From an uncultured archaeon (GTDB taxonomy: Archaea; Thermoproteota; EX4484-205; JAAOZP01): DNA of 64,000 nucleotides. The DNA lies in the NCBI GenBank assembly GCA_938045545.1, contig CALIBN010000016.1, positions 1 through 64,000 on the forward strand, given 5' to 3'. Under the pieces are notes generated by a model. The model worked only from the letters and a program-made list of their open reading frames with translations. It ran no database searches and had not been told where the DNA came from. A program made the position numbers and the translations under genes. Position 1 is the stretch's first letter. Each line of letters opens with the position of its first letter. Below are positions 490 through 60,029 of the stretch, piece by piece.

Positions 490-903
490 ATGTTGACACG
501 TGTTCAACGAGAGCTTTTAGAGAAGGCTGTCAGCCTCCACGGGCATCTCGGCCCATTTCTAGTCATAGGTTTGAAAATGGGTTTAAAAGCGTGGAACACG
601 GTGGGCAGGCCCGTTGCGTGCGAAGTCACTGCTCCCGGGGAGAAGCCCTACTTATGCTGCGTCGACGGGCTGAAGACTGTTTTGGGTGGAAGCATTTCCG
701 TGAAGAATGGGGACTGCTTATCCGCCTGGTTTAGAAGTGCTAGCGGAAGCCAGCTTGTTCTACGGGTCAGGGCGAGCATAGTTGAGAAATACGCTATGAA
801 ATACGCTGGCACACCCTGGGAGGGGTGTGAGCAGGATGCTTTTGAAGTCGCGGATGCTAGTGACGAGGAGCTTTTCGAGCCCGAGCTGTTGAAAAGCCTC
901 TGA
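490..903 (+). CDS. FmdE/FwdE-family protein
   Basis: LHGHLGPFLVIGLKMG and CCVDG motifs typical of the FmdE family. Confidence 0.75.
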   Translation: MLTRVQRELLEKAVSLHGHLGPFLVIGLKMGLKAWNTVGRPVACEVTAPGEKPYLCCVDGLKTVLGGSISVKNGDCLSAWFRSASGSQLVLRVRASIVEKYAMKYAGTPWEGCEQDAFEVADASDEELFEPELLKSL

Positions 904-929
904 GTCGTGGTAAAACGTTCAGAATAATT

Positions 930-2269
930 CTAAACGGTTCCCACTATTAGAACGGCGTCCTCGCTAAACGGTGCTGTGAATAATCTTTTCCCTCCGCCTT
1001 CGGATTTCTCCTCGCCGGCTGCCTCGCCTGTGACTGGGTTGAGCCATTCAGCCCTAAGGCTTCCCCTCGCTCCTGAAAGATCAACCCATATGGTCAACGG
1101 GTATTCTCTCGGAACGTACACAACGTATTCAGCCCTAGGGTTTGCCAAACAGTAGCCTGTTTTAGCAAGCTCCGGGCGGGGGGTGAACCCTGCGAGGTTC
1201 AGTTTCTCCGCCAGCATGCAAGTGCAGCCCATTGCTCTCCTAATTGGCTCCCACCTGGTGTCAACCCTCCCCACGTCCTTAAGCCCTAAGCCAGTAAGCC
1301 CGCCTGCAGTGTAGCCGCTATCATACGGATCCATGAAAATGGGATTATAACCTCTGGTGAAGGACTTCCAAACCCAGCTTGCGTCTCCACCAATGCCCCA
1401 AAGGTGATCCGTATCCAAGAGGACAACCTTCACACCGTCAGCCGGAGGCGGATCATACCTGTAGCTGTAGCCGTTTCTAGCGGCAGTGTTCGGCGAAACC
1501 CATTCCGCCGGGCTTCTGAAAAGATCCTCATTATCACCCGGGCTTCCGGGAGACCATGGGACAGTCATTCCAACAGGATGCTGTTTCCCCAATTTTTTCT
1601 CAAGATCGTGTATGAAGCTAATCATATGGTATTGCCACTCCACGGATTCATTGCTGCTTTCATTCGATATCTCGTAAAGCACGTTATCCAAGTGTTAACC
1701 GTTTCAACAACCTTCTTAACATAAGCCTTGTGCAAGGAAGTGACCTCGGGAACCTTAAGCGTGTGAACTAGTCTTCCCTCCCCCGTCCCATACGGGTCAC
1801 CGTCTACATCGTTCATATTGTTGTTTCTGTTAAACGGGTGCTGGGTGACCGGGTTTGTCTCCCTACCCTTGCTCTCAACATCCCATCCTTGGAAAAGCAT
1901 TATTGAAACATAAATACCCTGTCTCCCGGCTGCGACAACCCTACTCCGCAGCCTCTCAAAATACTCCTCGTCAAACTCCGTCAGGTTAAACTTTCCGGAG
2001 GATGCCCGCCTGTAGGGTAGAGGATGAACCAGCCGCTTATCCTCGCTCCATCCATGAAGCCATTCCCCTCCAGCCCCGCATTCCCATGCCCACATCCGCA
2101 TGAAGTTATGGTAAGCTTCATAGTCAAACGGAGAATCACTCTCATATTCTTGCAGGTTGCTCCAAGTGTGGGAGCCCGTCAGATAAACTGCTTTACCTGT
2201 TGAGTCGCAGAAATATCGCGGATTAGCTGGATGAGTCTTTAAAGGGCCAAGCAAGCCGGATGAAACCAT
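930..2269 (-). pseudogene. Glycoside-hydrolase-like TIM barrel (DUF6298/DUF4038-like) with C-terminal beta domain, frameshifted
   Basis: ORFs 1622..2269 and 930..1691 join as VN(D)LDNVLYEISNE; one base missing near 1692. Confidence 0.6.
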
Positions 2270-23962: not shown

Positions 23963-24391
23963 TTAAAAAACCTCCTGCTCGGTTTTGCTCGTGATAAAAC
24001 TGGGTATGCCTTCAACATCCTTAGCGGAGCCGCCTAGAGCCTGTTTAAGCCTATACTTATACTCTGTGTTAACCCTTACTCGCCCTGAGCAGATCTTCCT
24101 TATTTTCACGCTGTGCGACCTTCCCCTCCTGTCGAAATCTGTTAGGACAACTATTTCCGAAAGCTTTTCCTTCTCAAGCCAGTCTGTGGATGCAAGCCTG
24201 ATGAAGCTTCTAAGAGTCATTATCTTGGCTTTAACCCCGAGTTTAACCAGCGCCTGCCTGTCCTTTACACCCTCAACCACTATGAGCAGTCCCGCGTCGC
24301 CGAGGTTCAGCTCCTGAATAATCCTGCCTATTGTTTCTGCTGAAGCAGTGTCGCGCCTGCTCCCTGTCTTCCCAAGCCTGGGCAATAGCAC
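23963..24391 (-). CDS. Small Toprim-domain protein
   Basis: IVVEGVKD and LTDFDRRG motifs. Confidence 0.85.
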   Translation of the reverse strand: MLLPRLGKTGSRRDTASAETIGRIIQELNLGDAGLLIVVEGVKDRQALVKLGVKAKIMTLRSFIRLASTDWLEKEKLSEIVVLTDFDRRGRSHSVKIRKICSGRVRVNTEYKYRLKQALGGSAKDVEGIPSFITSKTEQEVF

Positions 24392-24510
24392 TCGCTTTGG
24401 TCAAAGCAGTCCGGGATAAAAAGTTTAAATCCCCTTTAAAGGCTTAGGATGACAGTGATGCTTAATGAGGTTAGTGAAAGCATGCTTATCCGTAGTGGCA
24501 AGGAGGCTTG

Positions 24511-25703
24511 ATGGAAATGGGGTCTGAACAGCCCCCGCCGATTACGAAGTACGTGATTAGGGTGGAGTTTGAAGTCGAGGGGGTTGTGGAGAGAATCTTC
24601 TTCAAAAGGGAAGGTTCCCGCATAAACACGATATTATAGGAGCCATATTCGGACAGACTGAAGGTCTGTTCGGAGACACCCTCGACTTGAAGAAACTCCA
24701 GAAGAGTGGCAAGCTTGGAAGAATAGACGTTGATCTGAAGAAGGAGGATAAGAAGACCGTTGGAAACGTGACTATCCCTAATAATCTTGATCAGCCTACT
24801 GCAGCGCTTCTAGCGGCGACGCTGGAAAGCATAGAGAGGGTTGGACCTTACGACGCCTGGTTTAAACTAGTTAGCGTTGAAGACATGAGGGAAGAGAAGA
24901 GGAGGAGGATCATGGAGAGAGCGAAGGACATTATGCAGAGATGGTCAGCCTCCCAGAGGAGCGAAGTAATACAGATGATAAGCCAGGTTAGTGAGGTCAG
25001 TGACGTTGGCAAAATAGTTAGTCTCGCTGCCGATGTTGAAGGCGGGCCTGAGGCTGAGTCGAGTGAAACACTGTTCATCGTTGAGGGCCGAGCTGATTTA
25101 ACCACTCTTATGAAGGCGGGCGTTAAGAACGTGGTTGCGACCAACGGTGTGAACATTTCCCAGTATGTGGTTAACCTGACCCATAAGAAGAAGGAGGTTA
25201 CAGTTCTGGCTGACGGCGACAGGGTTGGCGACATGATTGTGAAAGAGCTTCTGAGAAGAGGGGCGAAAATAGACTACGTAGGCAAGGCTCCTCAAGGGAG
25301 GGAGGTTGAGGAGATGAAGCCTATTGAAATCCTAGACATGATAAGCAGGAGGGTTGACGTTAAGACTTATCTCGCAACCTTGCAGGCGACGGCTAAGCCG
25401 GCTGCCCCGGAAAACCTTCTGAACGTTATGAAGACGCTTAGGGACAGGGTGAAGGAGTCCTTCACCGCGATTCTTCTAGACGATGAGGGAGAGATTATGG
25501 ACGAGGTCCCTGTGAGCCAGCTTTTCGAAAGGCTGAGTGAGCTTGACAACGTTGCCGGAGTTATTTTCGACGGTATTGTTTCCCAAAGGCTTCTCGACCT
25601 TGCTCAAAGCAAGAATGTGAAAATCATGGTCGGCGAGAGAATAGGCATCGTGGAGAAGATGCCTAGAGAGATAGTTGTCAAGACCCTCGACGAATTAAAA
25701 TAG
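24511..25703 (+). CDS. dnaG: Archaeal DnaG (exosome-associated primase-like); two exons 24511..24591 and 24624..25703, 386 aa spliced
   Basis: AGGAGG RBS; exon 1 KYVIRVEFEVEGVVE; exon 2 KHDIIGAIFGQTEGL...IVEGRAD...DGDRVG. Confidence 0.93.
24592..24623 (+). other. Putative BHB mRNA intron in dnaG (32 nt)
   Basis: GTT-GTGG-AG|A-GAATCTTCTT-CAAAA-GGGAAGGTTC-CCGC-AT|A-AAC: complete hBHBh' motif whose cut sites restore the frame. Confidence 0.88.
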
Positions 25704-25747: not shown

Positions 25748-26251
25748 TTACTCCAGCAGCTCGCGATTAAGATCTAAGAAGGAACTGCCCCATTTGAATT
25801 TTGAAAGAATGCTCAACGCCTGCTCTGGGAAACCAAGTATGAAGAGGGCTGCAGCCAGTGCCTCCGCGCTTGAGAGAATGTTTGGAGCACCGTAGTTAAC
25901 AGGGTTCGCCGCCAGCAGCCTGGGCAGCCTCCTCTGGAATGGTGCTTTAAGAAGATGGAAGACACTATTGTCTGTGGATTTCCAAGAGGTGTCTATAACT
26001 GTCACCCCATGTTTAACCGCAACATCCCTGTCTACTGGTGAAAGCGTTGTCAAAGCCTCAGGGTTTAAAATTATCGAGCGCTTCGGAACCTGAGATATTT
26101 TGGAGAAAACCTTAATCAGGCCGTGCTTCTTCAAGACAAGGGTTGTGCACTTCCTCGGGTCATCCGCGTGCAGATGGAGAGCGTAGAGGCAGGGGGGATG
26201 TTGAGAGTAACCCCTTTTCTGTTCGAGACGGGATTCGACTAAGCGGCCCAC
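25748..26251 (-). CDS. tsr3: 16S rRNA aminocarboxypropyltransferase Tsr3 (start uncertain)
   Basis: DDPRKCT, IDTSW and RRLPRLLAANPVNYG...LSSAEALAAAL...FKWG motifs. Confidence 0.9.
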   Translation of the reverse strand: MGRLVESRLEQKRGYSQHPPCLYALHLHADDPRKCTTLVLKKHGLIKVFSKISQVPKRSIILNPEALTTLSPVDRDVAVKHGVTVIDTSWKSTDNSVFHLLKAPFQRRLPRLLAANPVNYGAPNILSSAEALAAALFILGFPEQALSILSKFKWGSSFLDLNRELLE

Positions 26252-26496
26252 CTGGCCATCATGCGGGTTACTCATCTGGCCTGTTTGGCCTTGCTTGCCG
26301 CAGGCTGAGCCCGTTTCACACCCACTCCGAGGGTCGTCAGCGTTCTTCATCCACATTCCTCCCGGATGGGTTCCGTTTCTGTCCCAGCCTAGGGGTCTCC
26401 CCCTGCGCCTCACGACGCTGCAGCACCCGCATCAAGAAGGGAGTTTCCTCAGGCCCTCTTCGAGCCCGACACCCGTCCTTCAACTTCCCCCCTGCC
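26188..26496 (-). ncRNA. rnpB: RNase P RNA
   Basis: P1 GGCAGGGGGGA/TCCCCCCTGCC; GAGGAAACTCC and AACAGAAAAGGGGTTA conserved regions; TTTAAA promoter upstream. Confidence 0.92.
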
Positions 26497-51103: not shown

Positions 51104-51230
51104 GTCGGGGTAGCCAAACCTGGTTAAGGCGCGAGATGCGCGATGTACGCGAGCCTGCTAAGCTCGTGGCCCATGAGAGTTCCATGATGGAACCACGAGG
51201 GCCGTGCGGGTTCAAATCCCGCCCCCGACG
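51104..51230 (+). tRNA. tRNA-Ser(GCT) with two introns: 30/31 (51136..51153) and variable arm (51178..51199)
   Basis: CGCG-AG|A-TGC...GTA-CGCG-AG|C and CATG-AG|A-GTTCCA...TGGAAC-CACG-AG|G motifs; spliced product folds normally. Confidence 0.88.
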
Positions 51231-59054: not shown

Positions 59055-60029
59055 CTATTTTTCCTGTCTCTTTGTGAACACCATGTATGAGGCCACTAGG
59101 AAAACTATTGGGAAAACAATGAGCACTATGATGTCTATCAAGCGTGTTGAAAGCACCGTAGGGATGCTGGCTATCGTTCTCTCCCTCTGCCCGAATCCAA
59201 GAGGCCCTGCAGCAAAGCCGAAAAGCGAATCGGTGATCTGTGTATAATGATAGTTTATTGAAAAAGCCTGTATTATGCTTGAAATCTCCGCCGCCTTCCT
59301 CATGTAGCTTAAGTACTCCTCCAATTCTGAAGCCGGGACTCCTGGGGATGTGAAGTTTCCAAATCCCCTTCGCGTCCTATTGAAAACAGCAATGGCTCTA
59401 GTGGGGGGAGGACCCAAGACCGCGATTGTGACGAAGCTACTTATTATAGATAGTATGAACGCGAAGAAAATCCAAATGCCTATACTGATTATTAGTGAGT
59501 GGCTCGACTTGTTTGAGAATGTTGAAATGAAGAGCGAGAAAGCATAGTATGCAAACGATAGAACTATTGAGAAAACGATGAAGATGCAGATCCTCGCAAC
59601 ATCGTCAAGCGTTACAGCAACCTTATGCAACAGTATTGAGACCGATACGGATGCTAATGAGGACACTGCTATGGTTAAGCCTATTACGGCGAGCGCCGAT
59701 ATTATCTTGCCGTTGACCACATCCTCCCTATATATTGGTCTTGAAAGCAGAATCCTAAGGGTTCCACGTTCCCTTTCTCCTGATATAGCGTCAAAGGCTA
59801 ATGCTATGCCAAGCAGCGGAGCCATATATGCCATTGTTGAAGCTATTGTTGAAGCTATCTGAGCCATCGGCCTCACTGCTTGCTGACCCCCAATCATGAA
59901 GCTAAAGGACGTTGAATACGTGCTGGCTATTGAAAACAGTAGAAATATTCCTGCTATCAGCCAAAGCCTTTTACTGGTTATAGTGTCGGTAAATTCTTTA
60001 CGCGCAATTGAGAAAGCGTTTTTCATCAT
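59055..60029 (-). CDS. ABC-2 type transporter permease
   Basis: IARKEF and FDAISGERERGTLRILLSRP motifs; multiple TM helices. Confidence 0.9.
   Translation of the reverse strand: MMKNAFSIARKEFTDTITSKRLWLIAGIFLLFSIASTYSTSFSFMIGGQQAVRPMAQIASTIASTMAYMAPLLGIALAFDAISGERERGTLRILLSRPIYREDVVNGKIISALAVIGLTIAVSSLASVSVSILLHKVAVTLDDVARICIFIVFSIVLSFAYYAFSLFISTFSNKSSHSLIISIGIWIFFAFILSIISSFVTIAVLGPPPTRAIAVFNRTRRGFGNFTSPGVPASELEEYLSYMRKAAEISSIIQAFSINYHYTQITDSLFGFAAGPLGFGQRERTIASIPTVLSTRLIDIIVLIVFPIVFLVASYMVFTKRQEK

Follow-up and report, generated by a model that had tools for sequence, protein, structure and literature searches.

We analyzed the dnaG gene (24508–25703, plus strand) in a 64,000-nucleotide (nt) stretch of contig CALIBN010000016.1 from a hot-spring archaeon, hereafter the window, and found that its coding sequence is broken by a 32-nt segment at positions 24592–24623. 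With a probability of about 0.9, this segment is a real messenger RNA (mRNA) intron of the type removed by the endonuclease EndA and the ligase RtcB. A preliminary description of this DNA had proposed a bulge-helix-bulge (BHB) micro-intron in dnaG that is removed by the transfer RNA (tRNA) splicing machinery, and that proposal is supported by the conservation of the insert in all 23 genomes of the class with a dnaG match, by its pairing, by coding constraint on the flanking exons, by contigs joined at the predicted junction and by the presence of EndA and RtcB. Archaeal DnaG is an RNA-binding subunit of the exosome. The features of the locus are as follows:

24502–24506, plus strand: GGAGG, a putative Shine-Dalgarno-like element 5' of the exon-1 start codons, assigned from the sequence
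24511–24591, plus strand: dnaG exon 1, 27 codons from ATG 24511, with the end ...EFEVEGVVE
24583–24627, plus strand: complete BHB motif, from sequence reading, folding and comparison with relatives
24592–24623, plus strand: 32-nt intron, with cuts at 24591/24592 and 24623/24624 predicted by the rule of cleavage after the second bulge base
24624–25703, plus strand: dnaG exon 2, 359 codons and a TAG stop (P0001, 359 amino acids), which starts KHDIIGAIFGQTEG and contains the Toprim domain
24637–24639, plus strand: TAG ending the unspliced exon-1 frame, as read from the sequence
24687–24689, plus strand: TTG, the first ATG, GTG or TTG in the exon-2 frame; a start here loses 21 conserved codons

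The exon-1 frame has two alternative starts besides ATG 24511, namely TTG 24508, which was used in the open reading frame (ORF) listing, and ATG 24517, which is the one best kept in relatives; the upstream regions of the same genus keep 'ggagg' or 'aggtg'. The short exon-1 ORF from 24508 or 24511 reads ...KYVIRVEFEVEGVVE, in another frame than exon 2, and counted from TTG 24508 to the TAG at 24637–24639 it encodes 43 amino acids (aa). The next ORF listed after it starts at TTG 24687 and encodes 338 aa. Exon 2 matched the Toprim families of Pfam in a profile search and, on its own, scored 352.9 bits against the NCBIfam model NF003108, 'DNA primase DnaG' (cut-off 300), covering profile positions 16–272; the first 15 positions of the profile are absent from exon 2. 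Excision of 24592–24623 by script gave an open frame, ...ITKYVIRVEFEVEGVVE|KHDIIGAIFGQTEGL. Cuts after the second base of each bulge join GAG to AAA and produce ...EVEGVVE-KHDIIGAIFGQTEG..., a product that is colinear with uninterrupted DnaG and in which the conserved ...VVE-KxD... is restored. There is an A at both 24592 and 24624, so that the junction position is ambiguous by one base.

The motif around the insert consists of an outer helix of 3 base pairs (bp; GTT 24583–24585 with AAC 24625–24627), a central helix of 4 bp including one G.U (GTGG 24586–24589 with CCGC 24618–24621), two bulges of 3 nt each on opposite strands (AGA 24590–24592 and ATA 24622–24624), an inner stem of 10 bp, three of them G.U (24593–24602 with 24608–24617), and the loop CAAAA (24603–24607). 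With both flanking helices present it fits the strict hBHBh' form, and the minimum free energy (MFE) fold recovered the central helix, the 5' bulge and the inner stem. The preliminary description had set out this structure, and its coordinates and every structural detail were correct. The junction it had derived from the cut rule, with GAG joined to AAA and VVEK in an open frame colinear with DnaG, was likewise confirmed, as was the stop of the unspliced frame at the TAG.

The class of the window comprises a single order, whose 26 genomes fall into 4 families and 6 genera, and the record titles of the relatives are Candidatus Brockarchaeota, Thermoproteota or Nitrososphaerota metagenome-assembled genomes (MAGs). 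A dnaG match was found in 23 of the 26 genomes, the other three being 70, 80 and 77% complete, and all 23 assemblies retain an insert, always at the same boundary between codons (VVE|K or VVE|R). The insert is 32 nt long in ten genomes, 29 nt in four, 18 and 24 nt in two each, and 30, 19, 21, 41 and 23 nt in the others. In 21 of the 23, the central helix GTGG/CCRC is fully paired (4/4), with the 3-nt bulges sited so that canonical cuts restore the frame, and an outer helix of 2–5 bp is present in 18. The inner stems have unrelated sequences between families and are paired in every family, over 3–11 bp. Within the genus, 97.5% of the structure cells pair versus 41–66% when the 3' partners are slid by 1–3 columns, and the observed pairing score was reached by one of 500 shuffles. 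Twelve further pair types were seen within the genus, mostly via G.U intermediates, and only one pair had changed on both sides. Both within the genus and between families, then, structure is kept while sequence changes, and the alignment of relatives suggested in the preliminary description bore out its reading.

Outgroup dnaG genes from other families of the phylum were uninterrupted at all seven loci read (...VEKPD..., ...VERPD...), and at each of these loci the uninterrupted DnaG has an N-terminus colinear with exon 1. In our interpretation, the intron was present already in the common ancestor of the class titled Brockarchaeota. These comparisons also bear on the suggestion that the frame break is a sequencing or assembly artefact, or that it marks a decaying pseudogene. 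The window does come from a MAG (2.03 Mb, 92% complete, 51 contigs). However, an artefact is refuted by inserts in 23 independently assembled genomes from several sources, and the insert also occurs, with zero differences, in contigs of a second DNA run. Decay, for its part, does not fit a gene present in 397 of the 401 genomes sampled across the phylum (a tally that includes G409) and under purifying selection on both exons. We give artefact or decay almost no credence.

The coding constraint was apparent on both sides of the insert. Across the genus, the 21 exon-2 codons upstream of TTG 24687 showed 50 synonymous versus 12 non-synonymous codon changes relative to the window, and the last nine residues of exon 1, EFEVEGVVE, are nearly invariant across the class. 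Both exons are under purifying selection at the protein level. Both pieces are accordingly translated, each in its own frame, and this requires them to be joined.

Joining might also be achieved on the ribosome, if by translational bypass or programmed frameshifting ribosomes were to hop the 32 nt without any RNA splicing; gene 60 of phage T4 is the precedent for ribosome hopping. The gap has a stable hairpin, and soon after it the exon-1 frame meets a stop codon, both of which would suit such a mechanism, but the take-off and landing codons do not match (GAG before the gap, AAA after it), and the conserved feature is a BHB geometry with frame-restoring cut sites, held across inserts of 18–41 nt. 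Moreover, a nucleic-acid molecule without exactly the 32 nt exists, as described next, and we regard bypass as very unlikely.

Molecules with the exact junction predicted for a spliced intron were identified in sequencing runs. Of 21 runs listed for the locus, 20 with all or part of the stretch, four were examined as contigs (X2, X13, X14 and X20). A joint from 24591 to 24624 ('skips 32') was present in one contig each of X13 and X14, the libraries of which are recorded as METATRANSCRIPTOMIC. The joined contig of X13 has 742 nt, a depth of 62.8 and 29 nt on the short side of the joint, and that of X14 has 2865 nt, a depth of 35.4 and 142 nt on the short side; X13 also has the unspliced form, at a depth of 23.2. 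The DNA run X2, which belongs to the probable source study, keeps the 32 nt with zero differences, so that the place of the insert in the DNA, which the preliminary description had assumed, is upheld by this run as well as by the assemblies. The observed joint is good, though not final, evidence of splicing, because even a joined form in DNA would be an excision exactly at the predicted cut sites, which is the signature of loss via spliced RNA, and such an allele was found in none of the 23 assemblies. We infer that the junction molecules are RNA. When JGI metagenome contigs were searched for the junction motif, the one match was to an unrelated, uninterrupted dnaG (41% identical) encoding VVEKHDIIGAIFGQ, and it has no bearing on splicing.

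Several observations weigh against the interpretation of the insert as a spliced intron, and the first group concerns the structure. In the window the outer helix has just 3 bp and was not recovered in the MFE fold; it is absent in three of the 23 relatives (the relaxed form), and one central-helix mismatch (G.A; 3/4 pairs) occurs in two of the 23, which are both genomes of genus g4. The fold z-score is modest (-2.12), with 8 of 200 shuffles folding equally well or better. In addition, a strict scan for BHB-like motifs (all four central pairs, inner stem ≥6, outer helix ≥3, insert of 14–70 nt) returned 641 in both strands of the 2.03-Mb genome versus 667 in a reversed/complement-only control. 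The dnaG motif by itself is not beyond chance, and since BHB-like motifs are this common by chance, the case must come from where the motif is and how it is conserved. Its location, precisely where the frame of a conserved gene breaks, and its retention there in relatives do go beyond chance. When the inner stem was required to be at least 10, there were 20 matches at 17 loci genome-wide; a few other of these loci also leave an open frame across the junction, and dnaG is the only one among the 17 where removal of the insert restores the frame of a recognized conserved protein.

The second group of contrary observations concerns the runs. X13 and X14 are flagged 'RNA? (probably DNA)' and have longest contigs of 81–86 kb, and the joined contig of X14 extends 2 kb upstream over genes on both strands. 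The contigs of the runs are approximately 94% identical to the window, which indicates that they come from a sister species and not from the window organism; assemblies of that species carry the insert. X20, the sole plain RNA-Seq run, had one unspliced contig of 239 nt (depth 10.5, 13 differences) and no joined contig, in a setting where contigs drop rare variants and where the library may contain DNA. The junction, which the preliminary description had suggested looking for in RNA, was present in contigs of X13 and X14, and X20 had only the unspliced form.

The joined form could, on these grounds, be an intron-less DNA allele. Some strains would then have lost the 32 nt precisely, and the insert-bearing dnaG would be unspliced and make a truncated protein from inside exon 2, or would go unexpressed. 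The 338–356-aa ORFs that gene callers find inside exon 2 would also agree with this. However, all 23 class assemblies have the insert, and a truncated product would not need the protein-level retention of the 21 exon-2 codons before its start and of the end of exon 1. A deletion exactly at both predicted EndA cut sites is, furthermore, what would be expected from a spliced RNA copy, so splicing is implied anyway, and the depth along the X13 contigs is uneven (31, 63, 37), unlike single-genome DNA. We consider a DNA origin of the joined contigs, with dnaG left unspliced, to be improbable.

An intron in the dnaG transcript would call for splicing enzymes, and profile searches of the window genome identified two genes of the EndA family (PF01974) as well as RtcB (486 bits). 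The 187-aa EndA paralog, whose closest PDB chains are 3p1z_B, 3ajv_B and 2zyz_B, aligns to the C-terminal repeat of two-repeat models, and for the 200-aa paralog the alignment was to the N-terminal repeat, with weak matches to 'subunit beta' models. From these alignments, the EndA of this organism is most likely an (alpha-beta)2 heterotetramer. Sections of PMC5829648 describe that form as one of two types that cleave non-canonical introns, and sections of the cbf5 literature tie heterotetrameric EndA to mRNA splicing (PMC2738675). According to ARAGORN, introns are present in 21 of the 39 tRNA genes genome-wide.

We infer that EndA and RtcB are the acting enzymes, and propose that splicing would proceed as follows. 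In the primary transcript, the last exon-1 codons, GTT GTG GAG, would base-pair with the 3' terminus of the intron and with the opening bases of exon 2, and this pairing would display two 3-nt bulges 4 bp apart. The two-paralog EndA would cleave after the second base of each bulge, and RtcB would join the exons and probably circularize the 32-nt intron. The spliced mRNA alone would encode full-length DnaG, of approximately 384–386 aa, with the unspliced RNA giving rise to the 43-aa peptide.

Database entries were in keeping with a gene whose first exon is overlooked. The 26 database proteins that share at least 73% identity with exon 2 all have lengths of 262–356 aa, and more distant DnaG proteins are mostly 376–412 aa with full coverage. 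The seven close proteins that were examined start inside exon 2, start further downstream or are fragments, and none of them contains exon 1. The TTG equivalent to 24687 is the gene-caller start in several relatives (338-aa products), and the names of the close proteins are 'DNA primase DnaG' or 'toprim domain-containing protein'. The forecast in the preliminary description that gene callers would truncate dnaG was therefore accurate, and automatic annotation mis-calls an essential conserved gene throughout the lineage.

A further candidate intron was found in the cbf5 gene of the same genome (contig C32, approximately 798–1175, minus strand, L049), where a 36-nt insert that includes an in-frame TAA separates GHGGTL from DPKVTG. 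This insert has its boundary between bases 1 and 2 of the catalytic Asp codon, and the published site of the crenarchaeal cbf5 intron, as given in sections of PMC2738675, is this same Asp-codon position. By eye, the insert can be drawn as a BHB with outer GGGA/TCCT, a central helix with one U.U mismatch, bulges AGA/AAA and a 5-bp inner stem. It would extend the cbf5 intron to the lineage titled Brockarchaeota. A second TruB/Cbf5-like gene (contig C10, approximately 59274–59570, minus strand, L061) carries, at the same Asp codon, a 13-nt insert that shifts the frame, with outer GGGA/TCCC, central CCCT/GGGG, bulges TGA/CGA and a loop of only 6 nt. In an order-wide Pfam scan, several species of the genus had this gene divided between two frames and other species had it uninterrupted, and the presence of the insert looks polymorphic on that evidence.

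The preliminary description had also suggested a genome-wide scan for BHB motifs at frame breaks, and this was of mixed value. The dnaG gene ranked second in both filtered candidate lists, but the scans were neither specific nor sensitive as an intron finder. The combined BHB and open-frame criteria gave 11,586 candidates, reduced to 174 by coding-potential filters, a relaxed-motif scan gave 846 candidates at 547 loci, and the cbf5 insert was missed. Of five other top loci examined with Pfam, four were rejected because they proved to be adjacent unrelated genes (Spt5/L11, cation efflux/PAC2, NTP transferase/epimerase and dCTP deaminase/isocitrate dehydrogenase). The fifth, a glucuronyl-esterase-like gene (contig C47, 27716–28701, plus strand, L060), matched its Pfam profile from position 83 only; its upstream part is in another frame, and a BHB-like motif is located at the break, for which a frameshift, an error or an intron are candidate causes.

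A different short insert was found in dnaG genes of another family, f33. Among the 150 of 522 phylum dnaG matches that were listed, it was present in all four genomes of this family, from two genera (G354, G225, G324 and G135; L062–L065), and further interrupted dnaG genes are possible. Its site is ten codons downstream of that in the window, between GALFGQ and TEGIF. In G354 the insert has 33 nt and contains an in-frame TAA, and in the other genus it is shorter and frame-shifting; each forms a hairpin with a BHB-like but non-canonical fold, to which the canonical cut rule fits only partly. These alignments hint that dnaG may be a recurrent insertion target, and the second site opens a comparative study of the gain, sliding and loss of mRNA introns in archaea. 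Two other observations were made on individual dnaG genes. That of G156 appears short and is located at a contig end. That of G020 (contig C33, 83–1228; L023/L052), which has the 41-nt insert at VVE|R, contains an extra in-frame segment of approximately 72 nt without a stop, between query residue 269 and query residues 269–358.

Other features of the window and its genome were as follows. The window contains an archaeal ribosomal RNA (rRNA) operon, an RNase P RNA gene, a 5S rRNA gene and several intron-bearing tRNA genes. An Rfam tRNA match of 127 nt (51104–51230, plus strand) was unreported by ARAGORN and is likely a long or multiple-intron tRNA gene. The divergent neighbor of dnaG encodes a 142-aa Toprim protein (23963–24391, minus strand), so that two Toprim genes are located back to back; weak matches were to the PRK04017 'hypothetical protein' models for this protein and to RNase M5 models for dnaG. 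On the other side, the 5' end of a 221-aa ORF (25748–26413, minus strand) that encodes a ribosome-biogenesis C-terminal domain falls within the RNase P RNA gene (26196–26488, minus strand), and the protein-coding gene probably has its true start further downstream. Elsewhere in the genome, RtcB matched its profile in two pieces (3–50 and 46–426) that are approximately 1.5 kb apart in a single open frame of 984 aa (contig C12, 87383–90181, minus strand, L047/L048), and the in-frame insertion of approximately 1.5 kb looks like an intein from its position in the frame.

If the dnaG intron is spliced as proposed, dnaG would be a second coding gene whose expression is impossible without the tRNA-splicing enzymes, and the central BHB helix of this intron, being fixed by codons, would provide a clean test case for EndA specificity. 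It is tempting to place it in a wider, missed set of EndA-dependent mRNA introns that prefer RNA-processing genes in intron-rich archaea, and to ascribe its class-wide retention to a function, such as tying the supply of DnaG to splicing capacity or producing a stable circular RNA, rather than just to a low rate of precise loss. This idea draws on the interruption of dnaG at two sites in two unrelated lineages, on the cbf5 insert at the published site and on the 13-nt insert of the TruB paralog that varies in the genus, but we hold it to be doubtful at present. The related view in the preliminary description, in which the intron would link an exosome subunit to the capacity for RNA processing, is speculative.

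Very few cases of splicing of protein-coding RNA are known from archaea. Watanabe (2002) and Yoshinari (2006) are said to have reported earlier work on the crenarchaeal cbf5 pre-mRNA intron. That intron occurs, according to sections of PMC2738675, in Crenarchaeota of the Desulfurococcales and Sulfolobales, and references 39 and 50 in the same sections predicted introns in other genes. Excerpts of a 2023 review name two archaeal genes, cbf5 and HVO_1309, with more expected (PMC10485636), and in excerpts of a 2025 endonuclease paper the references for protein-coding introns are to cbf5 work only (PMC12397907). A literature search over the main text of papers returned no report of an intron in dnaG or in Brockarchaeota. 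One paper that joins the terms DnaG, bulge-helix-bulge, intron and archaea has exosome substrates as its subject in the portion consulted (PMC7667871), and one that joins Brockarchaeota and intron deals, in the portion consulted, with tRNA introns in Asgard archaea (PMC11291895).

The closest known system is the cbf5 intron, which, like the dnaG insert, is a short BHB-type intron in a coding sequence whose splicing is needed for the full protein. In cbf5, a hetero-oligomeric EndA cuts between the second and third bulge residues, the same scheme as we propose for dnaG, and in both cases the host is an RNA-processing gene in a lineage rich in tRNA introns. However, the cbf5 intron is in the catalytic Asp codon, whereas the dnaG site follows the VVE codons, and the dnaG insert is not a member of the cbf5 family. 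The dnaG motif is a strict 3-4-3 BHB, whereas most cbf5 motifs are described in sections of PMC2738675 as unconventional. The dnaG intron is also found in MAGs titled Brockarchaeota and kept in every member examined, whereas the cbf5 intron has undergone gains and losses.

Compared with the canonical archaeal tRNA intron (hBHBh' at 37/38), the dnaG insert has the same geometry, cut rule and presumed enzymes, and is in the size range of small tRNA introns. It differs in having an mRNA host, in that the exon strands of its helices are constrained by codons (GTT GTG GAG / AAA CAC), and in that the outer helix is short or missing in some relatives. A parallel also exists with the unconventional HAC1/XBP1 splicing of eukaryotes, which is stress-regulated and in which the protein endonuclease Ire1 recognizes stem-loops. 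As proposed for dnaG, an endonuclease and an RtcB-type ligase there remove a small mRNA intron and the reading frame changes, but the endonuclease is Ire1, the recognized element is a stem-loop and not a BHB, and the stress regulation is a feature of HAC1/XBP1. RtcB and XBP-1 are both mentioned in the excerpted text of PMC8718801.

Finally, the HVO_1309 mRNA of Haloferax volcanii is a non-cbf5 archaeal mRNA that, according to portions of PMC10485636 and PMC7714728, is processed at a BHB by EndA. It differs from dnaG in coming from a euryarchaeon with an alpha2-type enzyme, and in the portions of PMC10485636 concerned it is not described as a class-conserved, frame-restoring intron. The dnaG gene is thus a new host gene for a known intron mechanism, that of cbf5 and, for cleavage, of HVO_1309, and its notable traits are the strict BHB geometry, the small size and the retention of the intron in every class member examined.

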